Source: Candidatus Marinacidobacterales bacterium (GTDB lineage Bacteria > Acidobacteriota > Vicinamibacteria > Marinacidobacterales > DATDRI01). Taken from it: 64,000 nucleotides of DNA. Positions 1-59,861 of the stretch are shown here, one piece after another (the stretch's first letter is position 1; each line of letters opens with the position of its first letter). Location of the stretch: positions 4,800,001-4,864,000 of the forward strand of contig OZ245365.1 in assembly GCA_965226495.1 (NCBI GenBank), in the 5' to 3' direction. Position numbers and translations under genes: made by a program. The notes beneath the pieces are model-generated. The model ran no database searches, was not told the origin of the DNA, and saw only the letters and a program-made list of their open reading frames with translations.

Positions 1-1
1 G

Positions 2-244
2 CGAGTCATCGTCGCTGGCCTCGACCAAGACTACCTAGGCAAGCCCTTCGAACCGATCCCACAGTTACTCGCCATTGCGGAATACATCACCAAGACCTTG
101 GCCATCTGCATGCGTTGCGGAAACCCTGCGAATCACACCCAGCGACTCGTCACGTCTCACGAGAGAGTCGTGGTCGGCGGCTCGGAGGCCTACGAAGCGC
201 GCTGTAGACGGTGCTTCGAGCCCGGCCCGGCGAGCGACAACTGA
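2..244 (+). CDS. tdk: Thymidine kinase, C-terminal part (5' truncated by window edge)
   Basis: Manual translation of frame 2: [18 protein letters not shown]...AICMRCG...[15 protein letters not shown]. Contains the GLD-x-D motif and the zinc-binding CxxC pairs of type II thymidine kinases. Confidence 0.93.
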
Positions 245-1308
245 ACCTTTCGCAGCCCTTCCACCCATAGGTTGGCGCCGAGCACTGCAAGGGTAAGCGC
301 CCCACCCGGCACGGCGAGCGTCCACCAGTATCGCGTCATCGAAGTGTAGTTCGAGGCCGCGGATGCCAACATGTTTCCCCAACTCGCATTCGGCTCTTGC
401 ACTCCAAGGCCTAAGAACGAAAGCGTCGCCTCACCCAAAAGGAAATACGGTAGCGTGAGCCCCACCTGCAACAGCAACAGAGGAAGCGTATTCGGAAGGA
501 TGTGCCGGAAGAAGAGTCGACTCCGGCCGGCCCCAGCGGCGACCGCGGACGTGGCAAATTCGCGCTCTCGCAGCGACAAAACGTGCCCTCGCACAAGTCG
601 TGAAACACCGCACCAGCCCACGAGCGCCAACGACCCAACCAGAATCAAGGCTGCCCAACCCGGGGCCAGGTCGTCAGGAAAGACGTTTCGGACCGCGAGA
701 ATCAGATAAAGCGCCGGGAGAGCCATGAAGAGCTCCGTCGACCGCATCAACCATCGATCCCAGACTCCTCCGCCAATAGCCGCCGCGGCTCCCACCAGAG
801 CGCCCAAGGTCACAGTGAGCAGAACGCCTAAGATCGCGGCGGTCGCACTAACCCTGGCACCATGGAGCACCCTCGACAGTAGGTCTCTTCCCAGAGCGTC
901 GGTACCCAGGAGATGGGCTCGGCAACCCTGAAATCCGAACAAATGAGTGGACCCATTCTCGTCCGCCACCAGCCAGCGAACCGAGCAGCCTGCGCTCGGA
1001 AGCGAAGGCGGATGGTGGAAGCTCTCCCGATCCTGGGATCGCGGGCTGTAGGGTGCCAAGAAGGAAGCCCCGAGTCCGGCGACCGCGATGACCGAAAGCA
1101 GGGCGATCCCGATGCGGGAACCTCTATCAATGCCGCGGGGCCCCACCCCCACGGCTTGTCCCTTCGCCGGCAAGCGGCTGCAGAACGGCTGAGGGCTCTT
1201 ATTATCAATGCCGCGGGGCCCCACCCCCACGGCTTGTCCCTTCGCCGGCAAGCGGCTGCAGGACGGCTGAGGGCTCTTATTAGCCCACCAACTTGGTTTC
1301 CACAACAT
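190..1308 (-). CDS. Oligopeptide/dipeptide ABC transporter permease (DppC/OppC type); true start uncertain and may lie within the repeats
   Basis: [25 protein letters not shown]-like loop ([11 protein letters not shown]...RHILPN) and LSFLGLG...WGNML motifs. The first ~60 codons are repeat-derived. Confidence 0.9.
1125..1282. repeat. Two tandem 78-bp copies of a dispersed GC-rich hairpin repeat
   Basis: 1125-1202 and 1203-1280 are identical except for one base (cagaacgg vs caggacgg). Confidence 0.95.
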
Positions 1309-1407
1309 TAGTGACTCACTGCGCGCTCACTCCACGTTCGCGCGCTTGCCGCCTCGCTCCTCGCTCGGCGGTCTGTTGTCGGCCCACTCGGGCCGGGCTC
1401 GCTCCCT

Positions 1408-1494
1408 TATCAATGCGGCGGGGTCCCCACCCCCACCGCCGTCCCTTCGCCGGCAAGCGGCTCCGGGACAGCTGATGGCTCCTCGCGCAAGGTG
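1408..1494. repeat. Third copy (variant) of the dispersed hairpin repeat
   Basis: Shares tatcaatg..gggg..ccccacccccac..gtcccttcgccggcaagcggct with copies 1-2. Near-identical to the reverse complement of 49022-49106. Confidence 0.92.
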
Positions 1495-1517
1495 CAGTGC
1501 GCTCCTTGAGCACCCTG

Positions 1518-2489
1518 CTAGCCTTCTTCCATTCTGATTCGTGGGTCGGCGGCGCCGGTCAACAGGTCCGCGATCAGATTGCCGAAGAGGATCAAGACCG
1601 ATGCAAGAACCAACACACCGAGCAGCAAGAACGAATCCCGGGCGAGCAATCCGCCGAATGCGAGCCTCCCCATACCCGGCCATCCGACAATCACCTCGAT
1701 GAGAAATGCGCCGTTCAAGAACCGCGCTAGAGAAGCACCCGCGAATGCGATGAGTGGGACCATTGCCGGCCGAAGACCGTAGCGCACGAGTATCTGGCTT
1801 TCGGTAAGACCACGGGAACGCGCCGCCCTCACGAACTCCGAGGGTAGGACTTCGAGTAAAGCGCCTCTAGCCTGCAGAAAGAAAAGAGGGGACATCGAAA
1901 AACTAAGGAGGAGCGCCGGCAACAGCAGATGCCGAGCATGATCCAACACCCGGCTCGACCATGGGAGCTCGAGAGAGCCGGCCATGGAGCCACCACCGGT
2001 TGGAAGCAAACCGGTGGCGGCGGCAATTCCCAAACCACCCACCGCGAGTACCAAAGTGGGAACCGAGACGGCCCCGAGTGCTAGGCCAGCGAGGATTCGA
2101 TCTAGCGATCGTCCCGGACGAACCATCGCGAGAAGGCCGAGCCCCAAACCGACGAGGGACGAAACGACCAAGGCCGTCAGCACGAGCGCAAGCGTATAGA
2201 GGGCGGCCTCGCCCAGGAGCTCCGCTACTGGACGTTGAAACCGCAGAGAGACGCCCAGGTCGCCGCGGACCGCTCCCGTCAGCCACGACAGGTATTGTTC
2301 ATACCAAGGTTTGTCGAGACCGAAGCGGCTCACTAACGCGTCGACCGTCGAGGGAGGGATCCCTGGATCCAGACGCAAGCGATCGACAAACGCGCCGGGC
2401 GCCAGGTGGAGGAGCAGAAACGAGAAGAAGCTCACCCCGAAGAGCAAGGGAATGGCAGCCAGCAATCTCGTGAGCGCCATACGAGCCAC
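1518..2489 (-). CDS. Oligopeptide/dipeptide ABC transporter permease (DppB/OppB type)
   Basis: FGLDKPWYEQY, GDLGVS, EFVRAARSRGL, IEVIVGWPGMGRL and ADPRIR motifs. Alternative ATG at 2480. Confidence 0.93.
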   Translation of the reverse strand: MARMALTRLLAAIPLLFGVSFFSFLLLHLAPGAFVDRLRLDPGIPPSTVDALVSRFGLDKPWYEQYLSWLTGAVRGDLGVSLRFQRPVAELLGEAALYTLALVLTALVVSSLVGLGLGLLAMVRPGRSLDRILAGLALGAVSVPTLVLAVGGLGIAAATGLLPTGGGSMAGSLELPWSSRVLDHARHLLLPALLLSFSMSPLFFLQARGALLEVLPSEFVRAARSRGLTESQILVRYGLRPAMVPLIAFAGASLARFLNGAFLIEVIVGWPGMGRLAFGGLLARDSFLLLGVLVLASVLILFGNLIADLLTGAADPRIRMEEG

Positions 2490-2569
2490 GACGCGTCAAG
2501 CCTCGACAACAGGTCGCTTAGGGCGTGGGTAACAAACCCTCATGGGGGCCAGAAGATTCCGCCGCTCGT

Positions 2570-5080
2570 TTATCCCACGCGGCGATCGGTCTTGTCCTCG
2601 GCTCCGAAGAGGCTGGGCTGATGTGCGGTGCGATCGGACTCCTCCGGTCTCCGGCGACGCATCTTTCGACGACTCTTTTGATCGTACATGTTTCTATCCG
2701 CCGCCATGAGCAGCGACTCGAGATCGTCGCCGTCGGCGGAGAAAGCCGCGAGCCCGAGGGATATGCCAACGCTCAACATCTTTCCGATCCCGACGTCGAT
2801 GTCGGATGTCTCCACGACCTCCTGCAGCCGACGGGAGAACTGAACGGCCTGTTCCATCGTGGTTTTTGGCAAGACAGCAATGAACTCGTCCCCGGCATAG
2901 CGGACCAACACGTCACTGTCTCGCATCTCGGCCTTCAGGATGCGTCCCACTTCTTTGAGGAACCGATCCCCGGCATGATGACCGAAACGGTCGTTGACGC
3001 TCTTGAAGTCGTCCAGGTCCAGCTCGATGACGGTGAGCGGCTCGTCGTAGCGTTTGGCTTCCGAAAGGGTCTGCTCGAAGAAAATGTAGAGGAAGCGCGA
3101 GTTCGCCAGACCGGTCAAGCGATCGGTGAAGGCGTCCTCCTGGGTCTCCTCGAAGCGAATGGCGTTGTAGAGCGCGATCGATGAACGGTTGGCGATGATC
3201 TCCATCAACCGCACATGGTCATGCGAATACCGCTCGTTCCCCGACCAATAGAGCGCGATCGTTCCGAGCGGTCGTTCCTCGTGAACCAACGGAGCCAAGA
3301 TGGAGTTGTGGTAGTTCTTTCGGAACTGCTCAGGAAGAAGCATCACGTCCGGACCTGGGTGCACGTTGTAGAGCATACGGTTGTTGGCGGCCACCCAACC
3401 CGCCAATCGGGTCCCGAACTCGATGGACACCTCCTTGAAGGCGTCTGGGTTTTGCCCGGTGATGTGAGCAGGTGTTAGTACTCCCTGGCCATCGTCCACC
3501 AGATAGATGACGAGCGTGCTAAACGGAATGATCTTCTCGATCTTGGATGCAATGATGGTGAGCGTGTCGGGACGGGACAAGGAGTTGCCAATGGTCTGCA
3601 AGATTTCGAATAGAGCAAATACCTCCCGCTGCGGCTCGGAGATAGAGTCGCTAAAAGCGGGTGCCTGAGGCACGCCCACGATGTCCGGCATCCGTTTCCT
3701 GTCTCGATACTCCTTCGGCGCCGCCATCTCCCGCACCGCCAATGTTCCTAGCTGCTCGTCGAGCTCATCTACGATCTCCAGGAATTTGTTGAAGACCCGG
3801 GGATCGAACCGATGTGCTTCCCGTTTCATGGTCGAGATTGCCGTTTCCCGATCCAGGGAGCGGCGGTAGACTCGGCGGGCGGTGAGCGCCTCGTAACAAT
3901 CGGCAACCGACATGATCCGGGAGCCAAACGGGATCTCTTCGCCTTTGAGCCCGTCCGGGTAACCGCTCCCGTCCCAATTCTCGTGATGATGTTTCACATA
4001 GGGAATGACCGGTACCGGAAAGTCGATAGTGGAGAGGATCTGAGCACCCACCGCTGGGTGCGTACTCATCTTCTGGAACTCCCTTTCCGTCAAACGCGTG
4101 GGTTTGTGAAGGATGTACGACGGGATCGAGATCTTGCCCACATCGTGTAACACGGAGGCGAACCAAAGTCCCTCATAAGTCTTATCGTCGACACCCAACG
4201 CGCGCGCCAATGCCAGTGTCAGCAAACGGGTGCGCTGAATATGTGTACTGGTGTGATGCTTGTAGTCAGTATGGAGCTCTAGCGCGTCGATCGAGAGCGC
4301 GAAGGCCTCCGCGGTCTGATAGTAGAGCTGGGTCAGGTCCTCGTACTTCTCGTTGTAGAAATGATGGGCGTAGTAAACCACCAGAAGGATAGGGAGACCG
4401 AGCAGGAAAGCCCAGGGCCCGGCTACTTGATGGAAAAAGAAGATGACGGCTGCCCCGGAAGCGGAAGCGAGAAAGTAAAGGGGAACCAAAGGTAGATTCT
4501 GTCGCCACATGGCCCAGAAGCCACCTCGACCGGTTACCGCCATCATGGCGTGCATCGATGCCGAATTGATGAGGAAGTAGGTTCCAGCCAACAAGACGAC
4601 CGGAGGAATTATTTGATAGGCGCTTGTCAATTCCGGAGGCACGAAGGCGTAATACACATGACCATAGACGAAGGCGAAGATGCCACCTGATGCAGTATTG
4701 AAGATGGCTTGACTGCTCTTCCAGCCTAGGCTCTTGGATCGATGTACCAGCTGCTTCTTCTTGGTCGTGAACCAGTAACCGACCAAGTGAAAGAGGCCGT
4801 TCGCGACGACCCCCGGCGCCACTCCGTAGATCAGGGTGACGGAGAGAATCAAACAGTCGGCGACGGCCATCCAGGTGTTGGTGCGGGGGATTCGAACGAC
4901 CCATTTGGAGCTGAGCGAAGCGACGGCGGTCAGGGCGGCGAGGGATATCCAGTCCTGCCAAGTGTAAACTTGCCGGAGTTGGATGAGATTATGGACGGCC
5001 CAGACGAAAATAGGGACCGCCGCGGCGACGGATGCCGCAATATAAAGTTTGACTCTGGCTGGCCGATTTTGCCAGTCCAA
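2570..5080 (-). CDS. Multi-pass membrane sensor with HD-GYP, GAF and GGDEF domains (c-di-GMP metabolism)
   Basis: Hydrophobic N-terminal ~240 aa. LHDVGKI and HHENWDGSGYPDGL (HD-GYP), a GAF-like segment, then TDRLTGLAN, DLDDFKSVND and RDSD..RYAGDEF (GGDEF variant with RxxD). Confidence 0.92.
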   Translation of the reverse strand: MDWQNRPARVKLYIAASVAAAVPIFVWAVHNLIQLRQVYTWQDWISLAALTAVASLSSKWVVRIPRTNTWMAVADCLILSVTLIYGVAPGVVANGLFHLVGYWFTTKKKQLVHRSKSLGWKSSQAIFNTASGGIFAFVYGHVYYAFVPPELTSAYQIIPPVVLLAGTYFLINSASMHAMMAVTGRGGFWAMWRQNLPLVPLYFLASASGAAVIFFFHQVAGPWAFLLGLPILLVVYYAHHFYNEKYEDLTQLYYQTAEAFALSIDALELHTDYKHHTSTHIQRTRLLTLALARALGVDDKTYEGLWFASVLHDVGKISIPSYILHKPTRLTEREFQKMSTHPAVGAQILSTIDFPVPVIPYVKHHHENWDGSGYPDGLKGEEIPFGSRIMSVADCYEALTARRVYRRSLDRETAISTMKREAHRFDPRVFNKFLEIVDELDEQLGTLAVREMAAPKEYRDRKRMPDIVGVPQAPAFSDSISEPQREVFALFEILQTIGNSLSRPDTLTIIASKIEKIIPFSTLVIYLVDDGQGVLTPAHITGQNPDAFKEVSIEFGTRLAGWVAANNRMLYNVHPGPDVMLLPEQFRKNYHNSILAPLVHEERPLGTIALYWSGNERYSHDHVRLMEIIANRSSIALYNAIRFEETQEDAFTDRLTGLANSRFLYIFFEQTLSEAKRYDEPLTVIELDLDDFKSVNDRFGHHAGDRFLKEVGRILKAEMRDSDVLVRYAGDEFIAVLPKTTMEQAVQFSRRLQEVVETSDIDVGIGKMLSVGISLGLAAFSADGDDLESLLMAADRNMYDQKSRRKMRRRRPEESDRTAHQPSLFGAEDKTDRRVG

Positions 5081-5220
5081 CTGTGGCTCCCGGTTAGCAG
5101 AAAGAAAAGTCGAGTTAAGAGAGACTTCTATTTAAAAGTCCGATTCGATGACTGCTTTTCTTTTCCCCGTTACCGGGTTCATATTAATGAATGAGAACGG
5201 CGACAGAATGGAGAGAGGCG

Positions 5221-5250
5221 ATAGTAGCACAGCGGTACTGTGCCGGTCAA
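5221..5250 (-). promoter_or_regulatory. Sigma70-like promoter for the HD-GYP/GGDEF gene, with a dyad in the spacer
   Basis: Minus strand TTGACC-N18-TACTAT with an extended TG. The spacer contains GCACAG-N5-CTGTGC. Confidence 0.55.
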
Positions 5251-5273
5251 GATACTTGGGCGGGAAGCAAGCT

Positions 5274-5297
5274 GGAGGCCGCCGGGGGGCGGCCTCC
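5274..5297. terminator. Perfect 10-bp GC hairpin downstream of the micropeptide ORFs (terminator or stabilising stem)
   Basis: ggaggccgcc-gggg-ggcggcctcc. No strong U-tract follows. Confidence 0.5.
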
Positions 5298-5344
5298 CTC
5301 GCAAAGTCAATCAATTCAGGACGATCGGGTAACCAGCTTTTCTT

Positions 5345-5371
5345 CTAGACCCAAAGGATTCCGCGATTCAT
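5345..5371 (-). CDS. Micropeptide MNRGILWV (8 aa)
   Basis: atg aat cgc gga atc ctt tgg gtc tag. Paralog of 5582-5608 with synonymous differences. Weak RBS. Confidence 0.55.
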   Translation of the reverse strand: MNRGILWV

Positions 5372-5416
5372 GACATACACCGTTTCGGTTAATTGGTTAA
5401 CTTTCGGAGCCGACTA

Positions 5417-5512
5417 TTAGTTCCAAATCATCCCAGCAGCAGGAGCGGTCCGCTCTTCGAGCTCTTCCACGGTTAGTTCAACGATTTCGATGTTGTCGTT
5501 TTGAGTTTCCAT
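5417..5512 (-). CDS. 31-aa leader/core-type peptide METQNDNIEIVELTVEELEERTAPAAGMIWN
   Basis: Purine-rich RBS gaaagaaaggga upstream of ATG and a double stop TAA TAG. Acidic leader-like N-terminus and a GMIWN C-terminus matching the flanking micropeptides. Confidence 0.75.
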   Translation of the reverse strand: METQNDNIEIVELTVEELEERTAPAAGMIWN

Positions 5513-5581
5513 TGTTAGTCCCTTTCTTTCAATTAGTTGCGCCAGATTTAACTGAAAATCAAGAAATAAGCAATTTGAAAA

Positions 5582-5608
5582 CTAAACCCACAAAATTCCC
5601 TTGGTCAT
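5582..5608 (-). CDS. Micropeptide MTKGILWV (8 aa)
   Basis: GGAGGTGA-ccg-atg acc aag gga att ttg tgg gtt tag. Textbook Shine-Dalgarno. Paralog of 5345-5371. Confidence 0.7.
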   Translation of the reverse strand: MTKGILWV

Positions 5609-6035
5609 CGGTCACCTCCGTGAGATGCCCGACCTGGAAGGACACGCCGACCGGGCCGGGGATTGGGAAGGAAGCCCCCCTTGGAGGGATCTTCGCTCCC
5701 GGACTGAAAGGTTGAGTTGTTAAGAGGAGTGGTTCGGGTAAGCCAGCGGAAGGGGACTTGTTGGAACTGTCATGAATTCAAATAAAGGTCTTTGAATAAC
5801 TCAAGAACCCTTGGTGCAGCCCCTTTAGACCCACCGAAATTACCTACAAACCCTGCCTCTCGACCTCACCTCCTTGGACACTTAACCCACCGAACTTACA
5901 ACTCGAAACGTCTGCTATTTCTTGGACTTTTACTCTACGGTGGGAAAATACTCCGAGCACACCCGACAGTCAGTGACCGGGATCACCAAAGAGAAAATAT
6001 GGGATTTTCCCCCCGTTTTTCGGTTGTACCCTAAA

Positions 6036-7775
6036 TCACCTTATTAAGTAAAGTGCTTCGCTGTTCCAGAGGGTAGGGTGCCAGAAGGGCGTCGGCTCGA
6101 GGTTCCCGAGCCGGACGGTGGTACCCACCAAGGCGTGCGGCACGACCAGATCGATGACGGGGAGCTCTTCGACCACCAAGGCCTGCAGCTCGTCGATCAA
6201 TCCTTTGCGAGCTTCGTATTCGACCGCCATCATCTGCTGCTCCATCAGCTCGTCCAATCGCGCTTCCCATACAGAGGCGGGTTGCGACTGAGAGGGATGC
6301 CATACGTGCAAGGGCGAATGGCTGAGCCAAAGAGGCCTCTGCGTGGACGGATCGGGATCGGTAAAGCTAATCCCGAAGAGGCATGCCTGGTAGTCGAATG
6401 TACGCGTGATTCGGCTTATTAGGGTGGCGAAATCGAGCGAAACGAGGCTCATTTCGACCCCGATCCGCGCGAGGTCTTCTTGGATGAGCGTGGCCGTCTT
6501 CACGCGGGAGGGGTTGTTGGCGTTGGTGAGGAGCGTGAACCGCACGCGTTCTCCCCTTGGACCCACAAGCACTTCTCTCTCCTCGGTGAAGCCGGCCTGC
6601 GCCAGCAGTTCTCGAGCACGCTGCGGATCGTAGGGCGGAGGAGCGATAGACTCGTTCCACCACCGTCGGTTTGCCGAGGTGATGGGGCCGGCCGCCGGAG
6701 AAGCCAAACCCGCGTAGACGGCCTTCACGATGGATTGCCGGTCGATGGCCAGGGAAATGGCCCTTCGGAAGCGTCGATCGGTGAACCACGCTCGTTGCTC
6801 GGGCGACACCGAGCTCTCCGGGTTGAGATTGAACCAGATGCGCTCGGGAGTCGTCCCAGGGCCCAGATCGATGAGGCGCCGATCCGGAGCATCCTTCTCC
6901 CTGAAGCTGATGAAGTCCTCCGGCGGCAAGGGACTCAGAAGGTCGAGCTCCCCAGAGCCGAAGCGAAGCGCCAGAGCGTTCGCATCGGATAGGATTTCGA
7001 AAGTGATTCCGTCCAAATAAGGAAGCTGCTCTCCGTCCGGTCCGTACTTCCAGTAGTTGGGGTTGCGGCGGAGAACCACTCTCTGGCCAGGCACATACCG
7101 CTCGAGGACGAACGGGCCTAGACCTACGATCCCCTCAGAAACCCCGATTCCGTATTCGGATGCGAAGCTCCCATCCTCGAGCGAGGCTTGGAGCCTATGT
7201 CGAGGCAGGACCGGAATGCTATCGAAGATCCTCTCCACCACCGCGGTACGACGGGGTAGTCGGAACCGAACTGTTAACGGATCGACGACCTCTGGAACCA
7301 GAGGCTTCCCTTCGACCATCGCCGTTTCGACGAGCGGACTCGCCACTGCAGGATCATGCAAAGCCTGAAATGTGAACGCGACATCTGCAGCGGTCAGAGG
7401 CGTGCCATCTGAAAAACGGACATCGGGCCGGAGCTTGAAAGTCAGCTCCCGACTGTCCTCAGAGAAGGACCACGATTCGGCGAGCTCGGGCTCGAGCTCC
7501 TGCGTCAGCCGATTGACCCTTAGCAGAGCGGCGTGCAGACGCTCGGTAATTTGGTGGCTCACTTCATCGGTCGCAAGAAGTCGGTTCCAAGTCTGCGGCT
7601 CGCTGCGAATCCCCACTCGCAGCATGCCGCCGGCGACCGGGGTGCCGGGGATGGACGAATCCCCTTGGACCGCCTCCTCCTCCGTCAAACGGCACTGAGG
7701 GGCGATGAAGAGCGCCATGGTGGCGAGCGCAAGGGGCAAGGTAGATGCGCGTGACATCCACGTCATTGGGCCCAA
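6036..7775 (-). CDS. ABC transporter substrate-binding protein, family 5 (peptide/nickel type)
   Basis: N-terminal signal/lipoprotein-like segment. PELAESWSFS..TFKLRPDVRFSDGTPLTAADVAFTF, GLGPF and FRRAISLAIDR motifs. Confidence 0.93.
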   Translation of the reverse strand: MGPMTWMSRASTLPLALATMALFIAPQCRLTEEEAVQGDSSIPGTPVAGGMLRVGIRSEPQTWNRLLATDEVSHQITERLHAALLRVNRLTQELEPELAESWSFSEDSRELTFKLRPDVRFSDGTPLTAADVAFTFQALHDPAVASPLVETAMVEGKPLVPEVVDPLTVRFRLPRRTAVVERIFDSIPVLPRHRLQASLEDGSFASEYGIGVSEGIVGLGPFVLERYVPGQRVVLRRNPNYWKYGPDGEQLPYLDGITFEILSDANALALRFGSGELDLLSPLPPEDFISFREKDAPDRRLIDLGPGTTPERIWFNLNPESSVSPEQRAWFTDRRFRRAISLAIDRQSIVKAVYAGLASPAAGPITSANRRWWNESIAPPPYDPQRARELLAQAGFTEEREVLVGPRGERVRFTLLTNANNPSRVKTATLIQEDLARIGVEMSLVSLDFATLISRITRTFDYQACLFGISFTDPDPSTQRPLWLSHSPLHVWHPSQSQPASVWEARLDELMEQQMMAVEYEARKGLIDELQALVVEELPVIDLVVPHALVGTTVRLGNLEPTPFWHPTLWNSEALYLIR

Positions 7776-7918
7776 CCTTTCGTTGATGACTGTTTACGGA
7801 ACGTTACATTCTCCAATAATGAATACTGAATAGCCAGAGGTTTCCGTGGCGACGGTTACAGTCCCCAAGATCTTGCGGGGAAGCCCGATAGTGAGCTAAG
7901 GTTAACTGAATTCAAGAC

Positions 7919-8782
7919 TTGGACTTGCGGACGAAAACCCTCTCGGAATCAGAAGCGGTGGACATCCTGTTAAACACTCTAAACATCAGTCTTCCGACGC
8001 TTTACGCCTTAGCATGGGCCGATTACGCCCTGTTGTTCTTTCGCAACGACGCCTTCGCCGAGAAGACGGCCCCATGGCTGCTCAGGCTGGCCGCAATTCT
8101 GCACGGCATTTACCTCGTCCTGCTGGAGGCTCACCAACCGCACTTTCCAGTGGCAACGGTCTTCGAGGCTTTTTCACTTTTGGCGCTCTCGGTCTTGGTC
8201 GTCTATCTGTTCATCGAATCCCGCATTGGCGTCCGCACCACCGGTTTTTTCATCGTGGGCCTGGTCTTCGCGTTTCAGCTGGTGTCCTCGGCCTTTATCA
8301 CCCGTCCGACCGAAATCAATCCGCTACTCGCGGAGCCTTCGTTCGTCCTACACGCTGCGACCGCCGTGCTGGGTTACTCGGGGATGGCGATTTCAGCCAT
8401 CTATGGTCTGCTCTACTTGATGCTCTTCCATGACATCAAGAAGAACCGCTTCGGACTCATCTACAAACAACTCCCCTCTTTGGAAGTCATGGCGAACTTC
8501 ACCTACCGAGCGGCCACGTTGGGGTTCATCTTCCTGACTGTGGCCATGGCGCTGGGGTTGGCATTGATCGCCAAAATCGACCAGCCGGGATGGACATGGG
8601 ATCCGAAGTTGATCATTACCTTTGTGGCTTGGCTCATCTACGGTGCGTGCACCGTGGGCCGCAAGTTCTGGGGTTGGTCGCCGCGTCGAGTGGCCTTCGC
8701 GTCGTTGACCGGTTTCGCCGTCATTTTGTTCTCGTTCGTGGTCGTGAACCTTCTCTTCACGTCGTTTCACGGATTCGTCTGA
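7919..8782 (+). CDS. ccsA: Cytochrome c assembly-family membrane protein (CcsA/HemX-like); start may be GTG 7958
   Basis: Multi-TM protein with LPSLE and WDPKL motifs, directly upstream of hemA. Confidence 0.8.
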   Translation: MDLRTKTLSESEAVDILLNTLNISLPTLYALAWADYALLFFRNDAFAEKTAPWLLRLAAILHGIYLVLLEAHQPHFPVATVFEAFSLLALSVLVVYLFIESRIGVRTTGFFIVGLVFAFQLVSSAFITRPTEINPLLAEPSFVLHAATAVLGYSGMAISAIYGLLYLMLFHDIKKNRFGLIYKQLPSLEVMANFTYRAATLGFIFLTVAMALGLALIAKIDQPGWTWDPKLIITFVAWLIYGACTVGRKFWGWSPRRVAFASLTGFAVILFSFVVVNLLFTSFHGFV

Positions 8783-8783
8783 C

Positions 8784-10124
8784 ATGAACCTTCTCGTTGT
8801 TGGAATGAACCACCGCACCGCTCCGATCGATGTACGGGAGCAGGTAGCCTTCAGCGACATCGAAGTACGGGACATCCTCTCGCGAACCCGTTCCGAGCAA
8901 ACGCTCGGCGAAATGCTGGTTCTCTCCACATGCAATCGAACCGAGTTCTACGGGCTTTCCAGGGACAACGGAGCGGCGGAGATGTACATCCGGAACCTCA
9001 TCGTCCGGCAGAAGCAAGTAGATTTGGCGTCTCATCCCGGCTATGCCTACACGCTTTCGGATGTCGAGTCGGCACGCCATCTGATACGGGTAGCCACCGG
9101 CTTGGACTCGATGCTCCTCGGCGAGCCGCAGATCCTCGGCCAAGTGAAGCAAGCCCACCAGCTATCCGTGGAGTCCGGCGCCTGCGGGCTCGTCCTGAAT
9201 CGCCTCCTGCAAGCTGCGATCATCGCGGGGAAGAGGGTCCGCACCGAGACGCGTCTCGGGGGAGGGGCGGTTTCGGTAGCGAGCGCCGCCTCCGAGCTCG
9301 CCGGCAAGATCTTCCGGGATCTTTCGACCCGCTCGGTTCTACTCATCGGAGCCGGGGAAATGGGTGAGCTCACGGCTCGCCACATGTTGGAACGAGGAGT
9401 ATCCGATCTCACCATCGCCAACCGAACGTTCAGCAAAGCGCTCGAGCTTTCGCGCGAGCTCGAGGGAAAGGCGCTTCCCCTGAACCGTGTCGAAGAGGCA
9501 CTCGGTTCCGCCGACATCGTCATCAGCTCTACCGGAGCCAGCGAACCCATCATTAGCGAAGCGCAGATGAGGGCTATCGTATCCAAGCGGTCCGGGAGGC
9601 CGATCTACATCATCGATATCGCCGTGCCTCGCGACTTCGAGCCACGAATAGAACGGCTCGACGGAGTCTTCCTTCACAATTTGGACTCGATGAATCTTTT
9701 GGTGGAAAAGGGCCTCGAGGAACGACGCGGCGAGATTCCCAAGGCGGAAGTGATCGTAGAGGAAGAATTAGAAGGGTTCCTGAATTGGCGAGACTCCCTT
9801 GCGGCCACCCCCACGATCAAACAACTCAAGGAAAAATTTGAGGAAATCCGTCGTCAGGAGGTGGCTCGCTACCGCGGCCGCTTCTGCGACGAGGATCAAG
9901 AGCAGTTGGACCGGCTGACGGAAGGTTTGATGAAGAAGATCATTCATCCCGCAATGGGCAGGATTCGAGATTGGAGCGGAAAGGAAGAGTTGGGAGCCCT
10001 CCGCATCGACACGATCTACGAGCTATTCGAATTGCCCCGCCGGCCCGGACAGCCCGGACAGCCCGGACAGGACGACCTCGCCCAACCTGAGCAAGACGCC
10101 GGGGACGAGGAGTCTCAAGGGTGA
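8784..10124 (+). CDS. hemA: Glutamyl-tRNA reductase
   Basis: GMNHRTAPIDVRE, LSTCNRTE, GLDSMLLGEPQILGQVK, IGAGEMG and DIAVPRD motifs. Confidence 0.98.
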   Translation: MNLLVVGMNHRTAPIDVREQVAFSDIEVRDILSRTRSEQTLGEMLVLSTCNRTEFYGLSRDNGAAEMYIRNLIVRQKQVDLASHPGYAYTLSDVESARHLIRVATGLDSMLLGEPQILGQVKQAHQLSVESGACGLVLNRLLQAAIIAGKRVRTETRLGGGAVSVASAASELAGKIFRDLSTRSVLLIGAGEMGELTARHMLERGVSDLTIANRTFSKALELSRELEGKALPLNRVEEALGSADIVISSTGASEPIISEAQMRAIVSKRSGRPIYIIDIAVPRDFEPRIERLDGVFLHNLDSMNLLVEKGLEERRGEIPKAEVIVEEELEGFLNWRDSLAATPTIKQLKEKFEEIRRQEVARYRGRFCDEDQEQLDRLTEGLMKKIIHPAMGRIRDWSGKEELGALRIDTIYELFELPRRPGQPGQPGQDDLAQPEQDAGDEESQG

Positions 10125-11092: not shown

Positions 11093-14216
<3,124 letters not shown>

Positions 14217-23492: not shown

Positions 23493-26075
23493 ATGATCCG
23501 GCGATTCAAGTCACGGCTCCAAGGTAGTAGCGAAGTCTCCGCGGACGGGGAGACGCGCACGGAAACGCTTCATCGCTTCCAAGCCACCTTCTCTCTCGTC
23601 TACTGGCTGGTGACGCTTCTCGTACTCGCGTACGCTTTTTCTCTGGCTCGAATCGGCGACCGCCCCCTACTCATCGGGCTCGCACTGATGGCGGCCACAG
23701 TCAATTTCATTTTCCTTCACTTCCGGCCTCAGCGGTTCTCGCTCTCTCACGGAGCTCTGGCGATGGTCGTCGTCACGTCGGTCTTTGCCCTGCTCCTCGT
23801 CTATTGGACCGGCCCGCTCGATTCCCCCTTCTTCGCCGCCATCCTGCTCCTGGTTCTCACCGCGTCCCTCGTCCTCAGCCGGGTTGCTGCGGTGGCAGTG
23901 GTCTCCGGAATCTCCTTGGCATTCCTCGGCATCGTCGCCCTGGCGAGCCAGCTAGGCACCCCGTCTTCCCTTCTCACCGCGGGGGTCCAACTCGCCACGC
24001 TCTGGGTGATGGCGTACGTAGGAGGTTTCTTGTCCCAAGAGCTCACACTCAGGGACGGTGAGCTCAGCCAGTGGGAGCTCGAGCAGCGCGTCCGGGACGC
24101 CAGTCAAGGGGCGAGGGACGTGTTCGCCGGAACGATCAACGACCTCAAGAACGCGTTGGATGAGGTGCTAGAGCGTGCAACCTTTGCCCTGCGCATACCC
24201 GCCGCCGGAATCTTCCTCCTCGATGAGGAAAAACGGGGCCTGATCTTGACCAGTTACACGGGCCTACCCAGCGATCTCGCCGAGCTCGTTGCCGTGCAGC
24301 GGCTCACCGAGCCGGGTGCAGGATTGGCAAGTCGAGCCGCCCTGCAACGTAAGCCCTTCGTCTTGGACGATCTCATCACCGACCCTCTCGTGGAGGAGTT
24401 CCGCGAGGCGATCCTTCTTTCCGGGTGGCGCTCGACCGCTTGTTTACCCATGGTATCGAGGGGAAGAATTGTCGGGGTCCTCCAGCTCTTCGCCGACGAG
24501 ATGGGCTTCTTCAGAGAGTCACGTCTGAACGCATTGGGAGCTCTGACGAATGAGCTCGGTCTGACCATCGAGAACGTCTCGCTCGCCGAAGAAGAGAAGA
24601 AGCGGCGAACCGAGCTCGCCGCGCTCCACGGCGCGGCCAAGACCATGACCTCCACCCACACTCTCGACGAGGCCGTACATAGTGCCATCGACGCCATCGA
24701 CCGTCTCGGGTTCCCTCATGCTAAGGTCCTGCTGCTCGACGAGCGCCGACGCCACCTCGTGCCACAACCTTCCGTGCCCGGAGCGGCAGCGGAAGCGATG
24801 GCACCAACCCCGCTCGGCAAGGGCGCGGCGGGACAGGCGGCTCAAACTGGGGAGGTCGTACTGATTCCGGACACGGCAGAATTACCGCTCGCTGACGGAG
24901 ACCACGAAGGAGCCCGCTCCCAGATCGCGGTTCCCCTCAAGGTAAAGAGGAATCTCATCGGAGTGCTGGACATCGGGCACGAACAACCCAATGCTTTCGG
25001 TGACAAAGACATCCGCATCCTGACTTCGTTTGCCAATCAAGCCGCCATCGCCATCGACAACGCACGGCTCTACCAAGCGGAGAAGACACGGACCGAACAT
25101 CTGGGTGCCTGGCGCGATTACTCGGCGCGGATACAAACGGCTCAAACAGAATCGGAAGTTCTTGCGGCGCTCCTTCATTATCTGGACCGACTCGTAGCAC
25201 CCAACCAGTCGGTCGTGTACCGACCGATTCCAGAAGACAACCTCCTCGAGGTCACCCAGCACGTGGGTTTGCCCGGCCGGTGCGGGCACGACTCCCGCTT
25301 CGATGCGGCGAGCTGCATCGCCTATCGGACCGGCAAAGCATTTCGCTACGACGGCGCGAAAGAGCTCCCCTGTCCGATAAAATCTTCGACCGAGGGCGGG
25401 GATAGTTACCTCTGTCTTCCCATGGTGGTTGGCGGGTCCACGATCGGAGTCATTCACTTGGACAGTCTCCAAGAGGCTTATTGGAGCGAGGAGCGAACCG
25501 AGCTCGCGCGTGGCTTCGTGGATTACGCCGCACCCATTCTCCAGAACGTCCGTTACTTCAAGCGACTTCAGCAAAGAGCGATTCAGGACGAGCTTACCGG
25601 TCTCTACAACCGGCGTTTCCTGGAAGGACATCTACACAAACAACTTGCGATGGCCTCTCGTTACGAGCAACCGCTCGCGGTTCTCATGCTGGACATCGAC
25701 CTCTTCAAAACGATCAACGACCGCTTTGGACATGATGCGGGCGATCGCGTCCTGCGGAGCTTCTCCGTGAACTTGTCACAGACGATTCGGGCGTCAGACG
25801 TTGTCGCCCGATGGGGCGGAGAGGAGTTTGTGGTCGTCCTACCTTCAACCATCGGCCGCGCCGCCAAAGTACTGGCGGAGAAGATCCGGAGATCAATCGA
25901 AGCGCTTTCCTTCGAAGAGCAGGTTCCGGGTCTAGATGGGATAACGGTGAGTATCGGCACCGCCGCCTACCCGGACGACGGCGCAACCGAGGAGCTCTTG
26001 CTGAAGAGCGCGGACCTCGCTCTATACCGTGCCAAGCAACGGGGCCGCAACCGCGTCGAGGCGGCAGCAGTCTAA
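23493..26075 (+). CDS. Membrane diguanylate cyclase with three GAF domains
   Basis: N-terminal TM helices and three GAF-like repeats. DELTGLYNRR, DIDLFKTIND and RASD..RWGGEEF. Confidence 0.93.
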   Translation: MIRRFKSRLQGSSEVSADGETRTETLHRFQATFSLVYWLVTLLVLAYAFSLARIGDRPLLIGLALMAATVNFIFLHFRPQRFSLSHGALAMVVVTSVFALLLVYWTGPLDSPFFAAILLLVLTASLVLSRVAAVAVVSGISLAFLGIVALASQLGTPSSLLTAGVQLATLWVMAYVGGFLSQELTLRDGELSQWELEQRVRDASQGARDVFAGTINDLKNALDEVLERATFALRIPAAGIFLLDEEKRGLILTSYTGLPSDLAELVAVQRLTEPGAGLASRAALQRKPFVLDDLITDPLVEEFREAILLSGWRSTACLPMVSRGRIVGVLQLFADEMGFFRESRLNALGALTNELGLTIENVSLAEEEKKRRTELAALHGAAKTMTSTHTLDEAVHSAIDAIDRLGFPHAKVLLLDERRRHLVPQPSVPGAAAEAMAPTPLGKGAAGQAAQTGEVVLIPDTAELPLADGDHEGARSQIAVPLKVKRNLIGVLDIGHEQPNAFGDKDIRILTSFANQAAIAIDNARLYQAEKTRTEHLGAWRDYSARIQTAQTESEVLAALLHYLDRLVAPNQSVVYRPIPEDNLLEVTQHVGLPGRCGHDSRFDAASCIAYRTGKAFRYDGAKELPCPIKSSTEGGDSYLCLPMVVGGSTIGVIHLDSLQEAYWSEERTELARGFVDYAAPILQNVRYFKRLQQRAIQDELTGLYNRRFLEGHLHKQLAMASRYEQPLAVLMLDIDLFKTINDRFGHDAGDRVLRSFSVNLSQTIRASDVVARWGGEEFVVVLPSTIGRAAKVLAEKIRRSIEALSFEEQVPGLDGITVSIGTAAYPDDGATEELLLKSADLALYRAKQRGRNRVEAAAV

Positions 26076-57731: not shown

Positions 57732-59861
57732 ATGAGATTAGACACAACGCTTCTTCGCAGCAAGGTCGGCAAGAGACTCTTTACTCTGTTCATACTCTGC
57801 TCGCTCGCCCCAATCACGGTGCTCGCCATCATCTCCTTTACTCACGTCACCAAGCAGCTGGACGCGCAGAGCCGGAGCCGATTGCACCAAGCGAGTAAAG
57901 CGCTCGGAATGGCTATTTTCGAGCGATTGGCCTTCCTCGAGGCCGGGATGAAGTCGGCCGCCGCGAACCTCAGGCTCGGCGTGGACATCGGAAAGGGTGA
58001 ACATCCGATCGTCGCGGATCTCGGAGAACGATTCGACGCGCTGGGTCTCTTGTCCGTAGGCGGAGATTATACGCATCTAGTGGGAGACCCCCAACGACTG
58101 CCCGAGCTGGAACCGGAACACGAAGAGCATATGGCTGACGGGCGGACGCTGCTGATCCAACGGCGCGCGGTCGGTGTCCTTCCGCGGTTCATGATGATCC
58201 GTATGGTGGACGATGGAGATCCCTCGCGGGGCCTCTTACTAGGAGAGCTGAACACCAGATACCTGTGGGGCGGCGAGTCGACCCTTCCACCGCTCACGGA
58301 TCTTTGCATTCTCAGTGATGTCGACACCATTCTCTTCTGCTCGGGTGAGGTACCGATCTCCGAGAACGTAGGCTGGAAGCTTCGCGAGTCGGCCTCTGGA
58401 CATTTCGAGTGGAGCGGAGAAGGAGAGACTTTCTTGGCGGGGTATTGGTCGATACCTCTTTTCGGCTTCTCGGCGGCACAGTGGACGGTGATCTTGAGCG
58501 AGTCCATTGAAAGTGTCCACGCGCCAATGGCCGATTTCAGAAAGACGTTCCCCCTCGTCATTCTCATGTCCTTGTGGGTCGTCCTCCTCTTGAGCATCAA
58601 TCAAATACGTCGGAGTCTCGTCCCGCTCGAGAACCTTCAGGAGGGAACGCGACGAATCGCAGAAAAAGATTTCGATAGTCGAGTAAGCGTCGACAGTGGG
58701 GACGAGTTCCAGGAGCTCGCCGAATCCTTTAACGGCATGGCGGGTGAATTGGGCAGACAGTTTCACACTCTTGCCACCATGTCCGAGATCGATCGGGCCA
58801 TTCTTTCTGTTTTCGACACCCAGCAAATCGTAAACACACTACTCACAAGAATGCCCGACGTGCTCCCCTGTCGATCAGTCAGTTTGACGATCATTGACAC
58901 CAAGGGTAGCAACCGAGCCGAGACCTATTCGAAAAGCTGCGACCCGGAGGGTGAAACGGTAGTCGAGACCGTCGAGCTCGACCGCAGAGAGCTGGGAGAT
59001 CTTCGAGACAACCCGGAAAGCCTTTGGATCCGAGGAACTCCCCCACCACACTACATCCCTCCTTCGATGCGGCTGCGCGCCGAGTCCTGGCAGGTCTTTC
59101 CGATCTTCTTCAAGGAGCGACTGGCGGGGATCATAACCCTAGGCGATGCGGATGCTACCGCGCATGGTCAAGAGGATTTGCGCCGGGCGCGACAGTTGGT
59201 GGACCAGGTTGCGGTAGCCCTCTCGAACGCTCACCTAGTCGAGCAGCTGGACGAGCTCAACTGGGGAGCGCTCATCGCCCTCGCCCGTACCATCGACGCG
59301 AAATCTCCTTGGACCCTGGGGCACTCCGAGCGGGCGGCTGAAATAGCCATGAAGATTGGCCGGGTTCTGGGCCTAGGTCAGAAAGACCTGGACGACCTAC
59401 ATCGCGGAGCGTTGCTCCACGACATCGGCAAAATCGGAATTCCTCCCACCATCCTGGACAAGCCCGGGAAACTAACTCCCGATGAAATCGAGGTCATGCG
59501 GGAACATCCCCTGATCGGCGAGCGCATCCTCGAACCTATCGCCGCCTATGCCGACGTGATCCCGGTCGTCTCGCAACACCACGAATGGTTCGACGGATCG
59601 GGTTATCCGCGCGGCCTGTCGGGCAACGGGATTCGCTTCATCGCCCGCATCTATGCGGTGGCGGACGTCTTCGACGCCTTGATTGCGGATCGCCCCTACC
59701 GAGCCGGCTTGAGCCTCGAGACGGTGACCGATTACATCAAGGAGAGATCGGGGCGCCAGTTCGACCCCGAGGTCGTCGCCGCCTTCTTAGAGGTTGTGGC
59801 GAACGGCTACCCGAGTGCCAAGGAAGAGGAAGCCGAGCCCAGCTCCGTCACCCAGGCCTAG
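57732..59861 (+). CDS. Membrane sensor HD-GYP phosphodiesterase (periplasmic domain-HAMP-GAF-HD-GYP)
   Basis: Two TM helices, HAMP (DEFQELAESFN), GHSER, LHDIGK, HHEWFDGSGYP and DVFDAL..RPYR. Confidence 0.93.
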   Translation: MRLDTTLLRSKVGKRLFTLFILCSLAPITVLAIISFTHVTKQLDAQSRSRLHQASKALGMAIFERLAFLEAGMKSAAANLRLGVDIGKGEHPIVADLGERFDALGLLSVGGDYTHLVGDPQRLPELEPEHEEHMADGRTLLIQRRAVGVLPRFMMIRMVDDGDPSRGLLLGELNTRYLWGGESTLPPLTDLCILSDVDTILFCSGEVPISENVGWKLRESASGHFEWSGEGETFLAGYWSIPLFGFSAAQWTVILSESIESVHAPMADFRKTFPLVILMSLWVVLLLSINQIRRSLVPLENLQEGTRRIAEKDFDSRVSVDSGDEFQELAESFNGMAGELGRQFHTLATMSEIDRAILSVFDTQQIVNTLLTRMPDVLPCRSVSLTIIDTKGSNRAETYSKSCDPEGETVVETVELDRRELGDLRDNPESLWIRGTPPPHYIPPSMRLRAESWQVFPIFFKERLAGIITLGDADATAHGQEDLRRARQLVDQVAVALSNAHLVEQLDELNWGALIALARTIDAKSPWTLGHSERAAEIAMKIGRVLGLGQKDLDDLHRGALLHDIGKIGIPPTILDKPGKLTPDEIEVMREHPLIGERILEPIAAYADVIPVVSQHHEWFDGSGYPRGLSGNGIRFIARIYAVADVFDALIADRPYRAGLSLETVTDYIKERSGRQFDPEVVAAFLEVVANGYPSAKEEEAEPSSVTQA

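Follow-up and report, generated by a model that had tools for sequence, protein, structure and literature searches.

Peptide signals are textbook matter in Firmicutes and rare in diderm bacteria. We know of no peptide quorum sensing in the diderm phylum Acidobacteriota and of nothing on cell-to-cell signalling in its class Vicinamibacteria, whose members are abundant in soils and sediments and mostly uncultured. Among the enzymes of cyclic di-GMP (c-di-GMP) that take part in signalling elsewhere, RpfR is soluble, with a PAS-GGDEF-EAL architecture, and MbaA of Vibrio cholerae has GGDEF-EAL outputs. The available text of the respective papers describes RpfR as a quorum-sensing receptor for BDSF that is itself a c-di-GMP enzyme (PMC6361424) and ties periplasmic polyamine sensing by NspS-MbaA to a c-di-GMP enzyme (PMC8079147, PMC8967002). 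A preprint survey of HD-GYP proteins suggests intramembrane ligand binding for the membrane domain MASE9; in its available part it describes no ligand or partner for MASE9 proteins and draws no link to peptides or ABC genes (10.1101/2021.11.05.467447). The leader of the daptides has E(-8), L(-7), and P(-1) and is removed by an intramembrane peptidase, according to the accessible part of the source (10.1101/2023.03.08.531785). Here we describe a locus in a 64,000-nucleotide stretch (hereafter, the window) of contig OZ245365.1, positions 4,800,001 to 4,864,000, from a Candidatus Marinacidobacterales bacterium, where genes for micropeptides and for a membrane c-di-GMP enzyme stand inside a peptide transporter locus. 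This module is conserved and vertically inherited in one order of Vicinamibacteria. The reading that we favour, with a probability of about 0.4, is that an exported peptide signal, read back via the binding protein of the transporter and/or the membrane domain of the enzyme, sets c-di-GMP.

Organization and conservation of the locus

On the minus strand, the gene for a family-5 substrate-binding protein is followed by three micropeptide open reading frames (ORFs), a hairpin, a promoter, the enzyme gene, and two permease genes (Table 1; positions are in window numbering unless another locus or contig is named). The gap between the binding protein and the enzyme is 955 bp, and that between the enzyme and permease B is 80 bp and contains no hairpin. 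All of these elements had been listed in an original prediction made from the nucleotide sequence, and they were found on the minus strand in the order that it claimed, the 80-bp spacing included.

The order, which belongs to the Vicinamibacteria of the phylum Acidobacteriota, was sampled with 55 genomes: that of the window (G000) and those of families f1 (n = 7), f2 (n = 19), and f3 (n = 28). An enzyme search of 41 related genomes had matches in all 7 genomes of f1 and all 17 of f2 that were searched, and in none of 16 of f3; besides G000, 14 genomes gave matches at an E-value reported as 0, with 64%–89% identity. In 15 of the 20 loci fetched, binding protein, gap, and enzyme have the same order and orientation as in the window. 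The remaining fetched loci, apart from these and from a deletion in L028, are contig ends or fragments. The same arrangement was present in the genome loci L053–L056 and in the metagenome contigs L061–L063. Identity across loci was 64%–89% for the enzyme and about 50%–83% for the binding protein.

Synteny across relatives, proposed as a check along with the original prediction, keeps binding protein, peptides, and enzyme together in 22 loci. Both types of peptide described below occur wherever the gap is intact, in all 22 such loci, which represent two families of a single order; no enzyme orthologue with an intact upstream gap lacked the peptides, and in no relative were the ABC genes contiguous. 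One genome in each count for the order, both type A variants of L056, and a type B peptide with Ala for Pro come from an unpublished genome, G007.

A census with a profile of the type B peptide found it in 19 of the 55 genomes, namely G000, 4 of 7 in f1, 14 of 19 in f2, and none of 28 in f3. Type B is therefore restricted to the families that have the enzyme, f3 being without it (0 of 16 searched). Apart from an additional copy in G004, every match was located at the enzyme locus, and in 400 other genomes sampled across the phylum a single weak match was found (G078, 24 bits). The genomes without type B include three without the enzyme (G001, G022, and G040), three with a decayed locus (G003, G016, and G018), and two with a contig break at the locus (G006 and G012). 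In G001 and G022, only a stub of permease C is left beside the thymidine kinase gene, and in G040 this gene directly abuts ccsA/hemA. In G016 (L028), a deletion joins residue 448 of the binding protein to residue 290 of the enzyme. The enzyme gene of G034 has an internal TAG and its permease genes are gone, so the module appears to be decaying in this genome. Since the arrangement is shared by two families and is lost as a block, the peptides, the enzyme, and the binding protein make up one inherited unit. The possibility left in the original prediction that the cassette is an unrelated insertion into a transporter operon does not agree with this recurrence and block loss.

Type A micropeptides

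Type A genes are ORFs of 7 to 8 codons; the 29 copies collected encode M and one or two variable residues, followed by G-[IV]-[LV]-W-[VIA]. In all six frames of the 6.3-Mb genome, the pattern M-x(1-3)-G-[IVLM][IVLM]-W-[IVL]-stop has two matches, both inside the 955-bp gap. Between them, the 29 ORFs use all four codons for Gly and six for Leu, the Trp is invariant, and GGAGG is located 6–10 nt upstream in most copies. Between lineages, type A alternates only between GILWV and GIVWI. Varied Gly and Leu codons with constant residues indicate that type A is selected as a peptide and not as RNA. By this comparison, type A is a 7-codon ORF under clear protein-level selection, of a size never reported by gene callers. 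Together with the presence of both types in all 22 intact loci, this upholds the earlier description of the three Trp-containing micropeptides, which have the look of conserved, translated genes.

A second type A copy lies 3' of type B in all six f1 loci with a complete peptide unit (the window, L013, L025, L027, L056, and L062), where it precedes the hairpin alone. L014 has no type B and retains only this second copy. In L013 (positions 11159–11611; G002), an insertion of about 1.7 kb with an ORF for an IS1595-type zinc-ribbon transposase separates type B from the second type A. In L024 (6730–6922; G034), the stop codon of type A is lost and types A and B are fused as a 63-aa ORF, which was also met as the representative protein P0006.

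Type B precursor and a candidate protease-exporter

Type B peptides are about 30 aa long and consist of a conserved leader, VEELEER-x-AP, an invariant Gly, and a variable hydrophobic tail of 4–9 residues. In 15 aligned sequences, L-x-x-E-E-L-E-x-R-x-x-P ... G is invariant and the hydrophobic tail depends on the genus (GIIIGL, GLVWT, GMIVVL, GVIVAF, GTIINI, and GIVWGGP). Departures from the invariant positions were seen outside this alignment, with Pro replaced by Ala in G007 and Arg by Ile in L054. The window peptide has an acidic leader, ...VELTVEELEERTAP, followed by AAG-MIWN, and its C-terminal end reads VEELEERTAPAAGMIWN; two Ala are inserted ahead of the Gly, which identifies the Gly as the constant start of the tail. 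This tail resembles the core of type A. A motif search of G000 gave a single true match, in this gap, and L025 and L027 have a second type B copy. No publication with the strings NHNETL, GILWV, EELEERTAP, or NHNETLV was found in a literature search, which did not cover supplements.

A search of 1.84 billion representative proteins with the type B profile returned 62 relatives at E ≤ 0.001. Of the 62, 42 were fetched; about 30 are single-unit peptides of like design, and the others are precursors with two to four repeats of ...VEELEE-x-IAPG-xxx-NHNETLV. Precursors with several cores (P0023, P0030–P0033, P0037, P0039, P0042, and P0043) matched daptide and ammosamide leader models only below threshold, and distant multi-repeat relatives touch NF041808 at an E-value of 3e-4, which is also under the cut-off.

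More distant peptides with the same leader, revealed by a metagenome scan, adjoin genes for HlyD fusion proteins. In L059, genes for a kinase and a LuxR regulator precede four tandem peptides, and directly 3' of the peptides stands the gene for a HlyD fusion of 774 aa, then that for a class-V aminotransferase. L067 encodes two HlyD proteins, a Peptidase_M50/HlyD fusion, a CRP-type regulator, a peptide, and then an adenylate cyclase, and in L066 the peptide is followed by a GAF-GAF-HlyD protein. In these two metagenome contigs (L067, 1–8525; L066, 327–6146) the peptides with a type B leader thus stand among genes of cyclic-nucleotide signalling, the cyclase of L067 being an adenylate cyclase-AAA-TPR protein, a setting that echoes the link to a cyclic-dinucleotide enzyme in the window. 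In the fusions of L059 and L067, the N-terminal half matches NF041824, which models the daptide intramembrane metalloprotease, with E-values of 2e-64 and 8e-61, under its cut-off, and matches the YydH/LiaK RiPP (ribosomally made peptide modified after translation) protease model as well.

The genome of the window encodes exactly one homologue of these fusions, an 843-aa protein (G000:C1:563063-565591) with 35% identity to the L059 protein (E 5e-136). It consists of an intramembrane HExxH protease fused to an HlyD adaptor, and its match to NF041824 (E 1e-60; 205.6 bits vs the cut-off of 300) makes it related to that family but not an equivalog. The gene is located 4.2 Mb from the peptides and is followed by one for a class-V aminotransferase of the same kind as in L059. 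Across the order, the homologue was found in 7 of 7 genomes of f1, 16 of 19 of f2, and none of 28 of f3. Only fragments of it remain in G001, G003, and G016, all without type B, and none was found in G034, where the locus is decaying.

The spacing of Glu, Leu, and Pro in the type B leader is that of the daptide leader. Type B has the appearance of an exported precursor whose leader is of the RiPP type, and export and processing of the peptide are plausible given its sequence and relatives. The C39 peptidases were also considered as exporters and rejected as non-discriminating, being present in 42 of 55 genomes, including 18 of 28 in f3 and genomes without the locus. In one genome (G038; L020, 4642–7649), genes for YcaO (E 3e-68) and TfuA (E 2e-44) form an insertion that separates the hairpin after type B from the promoter of the enzyme, and type B of this organism may be thioamidated by their products. 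The extra copy in G004 (L052, 6867–6968, on contig C7) is an orphan type B-like ORF (...VELTVEELEERTAPGIVIVIY) away from any gene for the enzyme or binding protein and convergent with a gene for a MacB/FtsX-type permease; its other neighbours encode kinases and a DUF885 protein.

Membrane c-di-GMP enzyme

Behind a multi-transmembrane N-terminus, the enzyme contains HD_5 (E 5e-41), GAF, and GGDEF (E 8e-41) domains. The HD and HHExxDGxGYP motifs are invariant in 16 of 16 aligned orthologues, and RxxD (as RD[SA]D, five residues upstream) and AGDEF in all 15 that reach them, one of the 16 being cut by a frameshift. The active-site motif reads AGDEF instead of GG[DE]EF, and some AGDEF enzymes are presumably active. 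Judged from the alignment, the catalytic motifs for both synthesis and hydrolysis of c-di-GMP appear intact.

A crude hydropathy script gave about eight hydrophobic segments in the membrane part. The match to MASE9 (PF20972) is under the cut-off of 24.3 bits, with 17.8 bits for the whole protein and 19.8 bits for the N-terminal 260 aa; 9 of 11 orthologues match this model at E ≤ 0.1, the best at 3e-4. In 400 other genomes of the phylum only distant relatives of the membrane domain were found, with at most 80 bits vs 441 for the self-match. The loops at 63–66, 102–124, and 177–195 are positively charged, conserved, and predicted to be cytoplasmic, and the opposite, predicted periplasmic loops have at most about 10 residues.

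This geometry would also suit micropeptides that act inside the producing cell: type A, and perhaps type B in cut or uncut form, would enter the inner membrane from the cytoplasm and modulate the MASE9-like domain, as small proteins tune sensor kinases. There would be no cell-to-cell signal, and the binding protein and permeases would sense something else. The very short outward loops and the conserved positive loops on the cytoplasmic side fit such action, as do the four loci that have no permease genes and type A itself, which is very hydrophobic and has no leader or signal peptide. Intramembrane ligand binding, as suggested for MASE9 in the available part of the survey preprint (10.1101/2021.11.05.467447), points the same way. 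However, a peptide of seven residues is too short to span a membrane, relatives of the type B leader are encoded next to protease and exporter genes, and every intact locus, including those without permeases, retains the gene for the extracytoplasmic binding lipoprotein. We consider action confined to the producing cell unlikely, although it deserves attention.

Binding protein and permeases

The SBP_bac_5 match (289.8 bits vs a cut-off of 32.4) assigns the binding protein to cluster-C family-5 substrate-binding proteins, and its closest solved relative by sequence is AppA of Bacillus subtilis (E 4e-34). The binding protein reached no NCBIfam equivalog cut-off, and no substrate is assigned to it; the best NCBIfam matches of permease B were Opp2B and Opp4B, both under their cut-offs. 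The orthologues of the binding protein begin with lipoprotein-type signal peptides ending in Cys, so that the ligand should be met outside the cytoplasm, and the gene is upstream of the peptides in every evaluable locus.

The two BPD_transp_1 permeases are split from the binding protein by a 3.5-kb insert, the peptides and the enzyme. At two paralogous loci of G000, at 1.28 and 2.60 Mb, the genes for the binding protein and both permeases are directly contiguous; the peptides and the enzyme are therefore truly embedded in a transporter locus here. An OppD/F-type ATPase gene was not found in the locus. In total, G000 encodes seven family-5 binding proteins, five Opp-type permease pairs, and two OppD/F-type (oligo_HPY) ATPase pairs, which makes sharing of the ATPases in trans plausible. 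The absence of the ATPase was dropped as a clue to the function of the locus, as transporter loci of G000 are as a rule ATPase-less. Permease genes stand 3' of the enzyme in 13 loci and are missing in four (L019, L022, L023, and L024), in two of which (L019 and L022) the thymidine kinase gene is directly 3' of the enzyme. The conserved core thus comprises the binding protein, the peptides, and the enzyme.

When residues 45–579 of the binding protein were co-folded with type B, the score was 0.49 (0.49, 0.45, and 0.53 in separate runs), and the best of three controls scored 0.02. Of 157 solved complexes, 116 pass the mark applied, as do 2 of 215 mismatched pairs; only 18 of the 157 pass with a score of 0.60 or less, and both passing mismatches are in this range. 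The runs shared at least 39% of contacts, and the pLDDT of the partner was 36–38. This co-prediction, which the original prediction had asked for, is weak backing for the binding of type B, and since solved complexes of Opp-type proteins with peptides exist, the pass may reflect likeness to them.

The enzyme and the permeases, which share one promoter and are 80 bp apart with no hairpin between, could as well form a sensor of nutrient peptides in which the enzyme reads the activity of the transporter. The micropeptides would then be a separate RiPP-type product, e.g., an antimicrobial, that shares the neighbourhood. Such a product would agree with the type B relatives encoded in RiPP-like arrays with regulators of their own, with the YcaO/TfuA pair inserted beside type B in one genome, and with the orphan type B copy of G004 far from any enzyme. 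On the contrary, all 22 intact loci combine the peptides, the enzyme, and the binding protein, and these are lost together; no modification enzymes are encoded at the locus in 21 of the 22 cases, and type A hardly varies across the two families, unusual behaviour for an antimicrobial. A nutrient sensor with an unrelated peptide product beside it therefore seems rather improbable.

Regulatory DNA and RNA

The palindrome GTGA-N6-TCAC was found at the same place in 15 of the 16 gaps examined and is kept whether or not the ORF of the binding protein extends into it. By its sequence it is probably the site of a CRP/FNR-type regulator. The AGTA(G/T)nTT box could be the -10 element of a class II CRP/FNR-type promoter, with the palindrome at about -41.5; this assignment is uncertain, since a contig from an RNA library reaches position 5950 and does not fit a transcription start just downstream of the box. 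The AAGGAGGTG element was recovered by regular expression in 13 of 16 gaps and is perfectly conserved where aligned. Within about 60 nt downstream of it there is a hairpin with covarying stems (GGGAC/GTCCC and GGGGT/GCCCC); no conserved ORF follows the element and it has no Rfam match. An Rfam scan of positions 1–9000 at E ≤ 1 gave no match, and RNAalifold gave essentially no consensus for the region upstream of type A and for the 5' untranslated region (5'-UTR) of the enzyme, where alignments were poor.

A hairpin related to that at 5274–5297 is present in 13 of 16 gaps. In the window it has no T-tract and was not called terminator-like. Downstream of it, TTGACC-18-TACTAT with a TG extension (5250–5221) is the only sigma-70-like site in the 1.3 kb from 4900 to 6200, where shuffled sequences give 0.7. 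The TTGA and TGTGnTAnnnT blocks of this site are conserved in 11 aligned loci.

In the 5'-UTR of the enzyme, ACCCGGTA (5171–5178), about 90 nt upstream of the start codon, can pair with the Shine-Dalgarno (SD) region AACCGGGA (5088–5095). Taken sequence by sequence, pairing of the SD with an element 54–133 nt upstream of the start is the best duplex in 18 of 19 loci, the distance in L020 being 30 nt. In other genera, compensatory pairs keep the helix (GACTCCGG/CCGGAGTC, GACTTCGG/CCGAAGTC, and CCCGGT/ACCGGG). The Z-scores are modest, from -0.1 to -4.2, and the 5'-UTR may act as a translational switch through SD sequestration.

Contigs from RNA libraries (two metatranscriptome runs of one study) cover positions 5244–5440, 5495–5796, and 5604–5950 with zero differing letters. 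They span nearly the whole peptide unit; one extends through the hairpin and another up to the putative -10 box. These contigs are unstranded and have undefined ends, and they give a weak hint that the peptide unit is transcribed. Two short imperfect RNA pieces (1126–1156 and 1421–1486) were excluded, and the uncovered parts of the 8.2 kb are uninformative on whether the binding protein, enzyme, or permeases are expressed. At least half of the sampled words of the stretch were contained in 18 DNA runs, and the runs that contain any of it come from seven studies.

These elements bear on the possibility that the small ORFs are cis-acting upstream ORFs that control type B or the enzyme operon by ribosome arrest or attenuation, the released peptides being functionless. 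An ORF of seven codons that has an invariant Trp and is preceded by a strong SD does resemble arrest or leader peptides, the unit is followed by a hairpin that an RNA-library contig crosses, and the 5'-UTR of the enzyme has an SD-sequestering helix. But the conserved promoter of the enzyme is its own and lies downstream of the hairpin and of the peptides, an arrangement that argues against control of the enzyme by a simple leader peptide, and in the six complete f1 loci the additional copy of type A has nothing but the hairpin after it. In addition, no conserved alternative structure overlaps the small ORFs in the poor alignments, and the type B leader family is found beside proteases and exporters. 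Purely cis-acting ORFs are very unlikely.

Table 1. Features of the peptide, enzyme, and transporter locus (window positions)
Feature	Position	Strand	Evidence
Family-5 (Opp/App-type) substrate-binding lipoprotein	6036-7775	-	SBP_bac_5 Pfam E 4e-86
Palindrome GTGA-N6-TCAC, CRP/FNR-type by form	5973-5986	-	Conserved across gaps
AGTA(G/T)nTT box, possible -10	5945-5950	-	Alignment
AAGGAGGTG element, then small covarying hairpin	5867-5875	-	Regular expression and alignment
Type A ORF 1, MTKGILWV and stop	5582-5608	-	GGAGG 7 nt upstream
Type B precursor, 31 aa, METQNDNIEIVELTVEELEERTAPAAGMIWN	5417-5512	-	Profile and alignment
Type A ORF 2, MNRGILWV and stop	5345-5371	-	No clear SD in G000
GC-rich hairpin of 10 bp, GGAGGCCGCC-CCCC-GGCGGCCTCC, end of peptide unit	5274-5297	-	Sequence
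Promoter-like site of enzyme operon, TTGACC, 18 nt, TG-n-TACTAT	5221-5250	-	Sigma-70-like scan
Enzyme 5'-UTR with candidate SD-pairing element	5081-5214	-	Duplex prediction
Membrane c-di-GMP enzyme, 836 aa, about 8 transmembrane segments (MASE9-like), HD-GYP, GAF, GGDEF	2570-5080	-	Pfam
Opp/Dpp-type permease B	1518-2489	-	BPD_transp_1 E 2e-27 and BPD_transp_1_N
Opp/Dpp-type permease C	190-1308	-	BPD_transp_1 E 4e-22

The locus is flanked by divergent genes of haem synthesis (ccsA-like, hemA, hemC, hemD, and hemB) on one side and by convergent genes for thymidine kinase, DUF84, and EF-P on the other, with the permease C end of the operon facing the thymidine kinase gene. Elsewhere in the window, on the plus strand, a GGDEF-like match (25416–26054) and an HD-GYP-like match (59310–59798) are in open frames of 867 and 750 aa. 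Just below the window, adjoining genes for Ku and an ATP-dependent DNA ligase, the bacterial end-joining pair, were found (L033, 6751–8689; G000). In G026, a homologue of DruA (Druantia defence) is encoded immediately upstream of the binding protein gene (L022, 2804–3691).

Proposed signalling mechanism

According to the signal reading, type B would be cleaved immediately ahead of the Gly and exported, for which the MpaP-like protease/HlyD fusion at G000:C1:563063-565591 is the candidate. The resulting peptides of Gly and hydrophobic residues, which are like the type A core, would be caught by the periplasmic family-5 lipoprotein and passed to the two permeases, and/or would partition into the membrane. 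The MASE9-like domain, or the GAF domain after import, would read the peptide, and the enzyme would shift between hydrolysis of c-di-GMP by HD-GYP and its synthesis by GGDEF, with its AGDEF active-site motif and RxxD site. We infer export, the cleavage site, binding by the lipoprotein or the transmembrane domain, and the effect on c-di-GMP. In its fullest form, the locus would be a complete gene-encoded autoinducer circuit, with type A and type B peptides (G-hydrophobic-Trp, with pherotype-like tails), capture by an Opp-family protein, the membrane domain of the enzyme as the receptor, and the peptide level passed on to c-di-GMP without a kinase or transcription factor. We put this complete circuit forward tentatively, and it is doubtful.

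Several observations weigh against an exported signal. Type A is leaderless and without a known export route, and the window type B peptide has no match among NCBIfam or Pfam models. The link to the protease/HlyD protein was drawn from the neighbourhood on two or three unrelated metagenome contigs and the phyletic pattern in close kin; G026 has type B and an intact enzyme yet no homologue of the protein at E ≤ 1e-20, and the homologue of G008 is truncated, as is that of G002. The very short predicted periplasmic loops of the enzyme make docking of the 60-kDa binding protein not obvious, and the four loci without permeases indicate that import through them is not essential. The co-folding pass is a weak one. 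Separate transcription of the peptides and the enzyme is uncertain, since the hairpin between them has no T-tract and is crossed by a contig. Finally, all genomes compared are metagenome-assembled, and frameshifts occur in several loci. The probability left by the signal reading and the three alternatives discussed above belongs to another explanation or to none.

If the locus is a signal circuit, the type A gene would rank with the shortest functional genes known to encode a protein, MASE9-type membrane domains would get their first candidate ligand, and c-di-GMP enzymes coupled to binding proteins would extend from metabolites to gene-encoded peptides. A c-di-GMP enzyme in the role of a quorum receptor, as proposed in the original prediction, is already known for a fatty-acid signal (RpfR), and novelty would be limited to the use of a peptide. 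The hypothesis that the locus offers is compact and testable, with four to six genes and purchasable peptides of 5–8 residues. It also points to a family of daptide-type protease/HlyD fusions that travels with acidic-leader peptides beside genes of cyclic-nucleotide signalling.

Comparison with known systems

The literature on signalling peptides, diguanylate cyclases, and oligopeptide-binding proteins contained nothing comparable among the matches listed, and publications combining Vicinamibacteria and c-di-GMP had nothing related to the module, of which we found no description in print. With the RRNPP circuits of Firmicutes (Phr/Rap, PapR/PlcR, and SHP/Rgg) the locus shares a small precursor gene beside that of the receptor (here a candidate), an Opp-family binding protein and permeases, and, as proposed here, a precursor whose C-terminal end yields the mature peptide, short and hydrophobic. 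Unlike these systems, it belongs to a diderm Acidobacterium and its candidate receptor is a membrane c-di-GMP enzyme, not a transcription factor; the TPR family, to which the RRNPP receptors belong, was found in none of the locus proteins. The leader is acidic and RiPP-like, whereas that of RRNPP precursors is a Sec signal. An extra leaderless 7-mer ORF is present, and the permeases are absent in four loci.

The daptide pathway (MpaA and MpaP), as far as the accessible part of its description goes, has the same Glu -8, Leu -7, and Pro -1 in the leader and an intramembrane HExxH protease homologous to that of G000 (10.1101/2023.03.08.531785). The protease of G000 differs in being under the family cut-off and fused to an HlyD adaptor, and homologues of MpaB, MpaC, MpaD, and MpaM are absent from the peptide locus by Pfam domain content. 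The C-terminal residues of type B vary, with no invariant Thr, and its cores have only 4–9 residues. Assignment of type B to the daptides was rejected, given no model match, no invariant Thr, and no tailoring genes nearby. MASE9-HD-GYP-GAF-GGDEF proteins of the survey preprint, in the part available, share with the enzyme the domain order and a membrane domain with short outward loops (10.1101/2021.11.05.467447), but the membrane domain described here is under the Pfam cut-off for MASE9.

In NspS-MbaA, too, a periplasmic ABC-type binding protein is encoded beside a bifunctional membrane c-di-GMP enzyme; there it serves as the signal input. From what the two sources describe, the ligand there is a polyamine and MbaA has a periplasmic sensor, whereas the locus of the window contains genes for putative peptide signals, and its enzyme is almost without periplasmic loops and has HD-GYP-GAF-GGDEF outputs (PMC8079147, PMC8967002). 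If the signal reading is true, the likeness to RpfR, in the available account of that receptor, is that an enzyme of c-di-GMP metabolism senses the autoinducer directly; RpfR responds to a fatty acid, and here a membrane HD-GYP-GAF-GGDEF enzyme with an Opp-type binding protein would respond to a peptide (PMC6361424). By analogy, the module can be likened to Opp-dependent pheromone circuits, to NspS-MbaA, and to RpfR, and it is a member of none of them.

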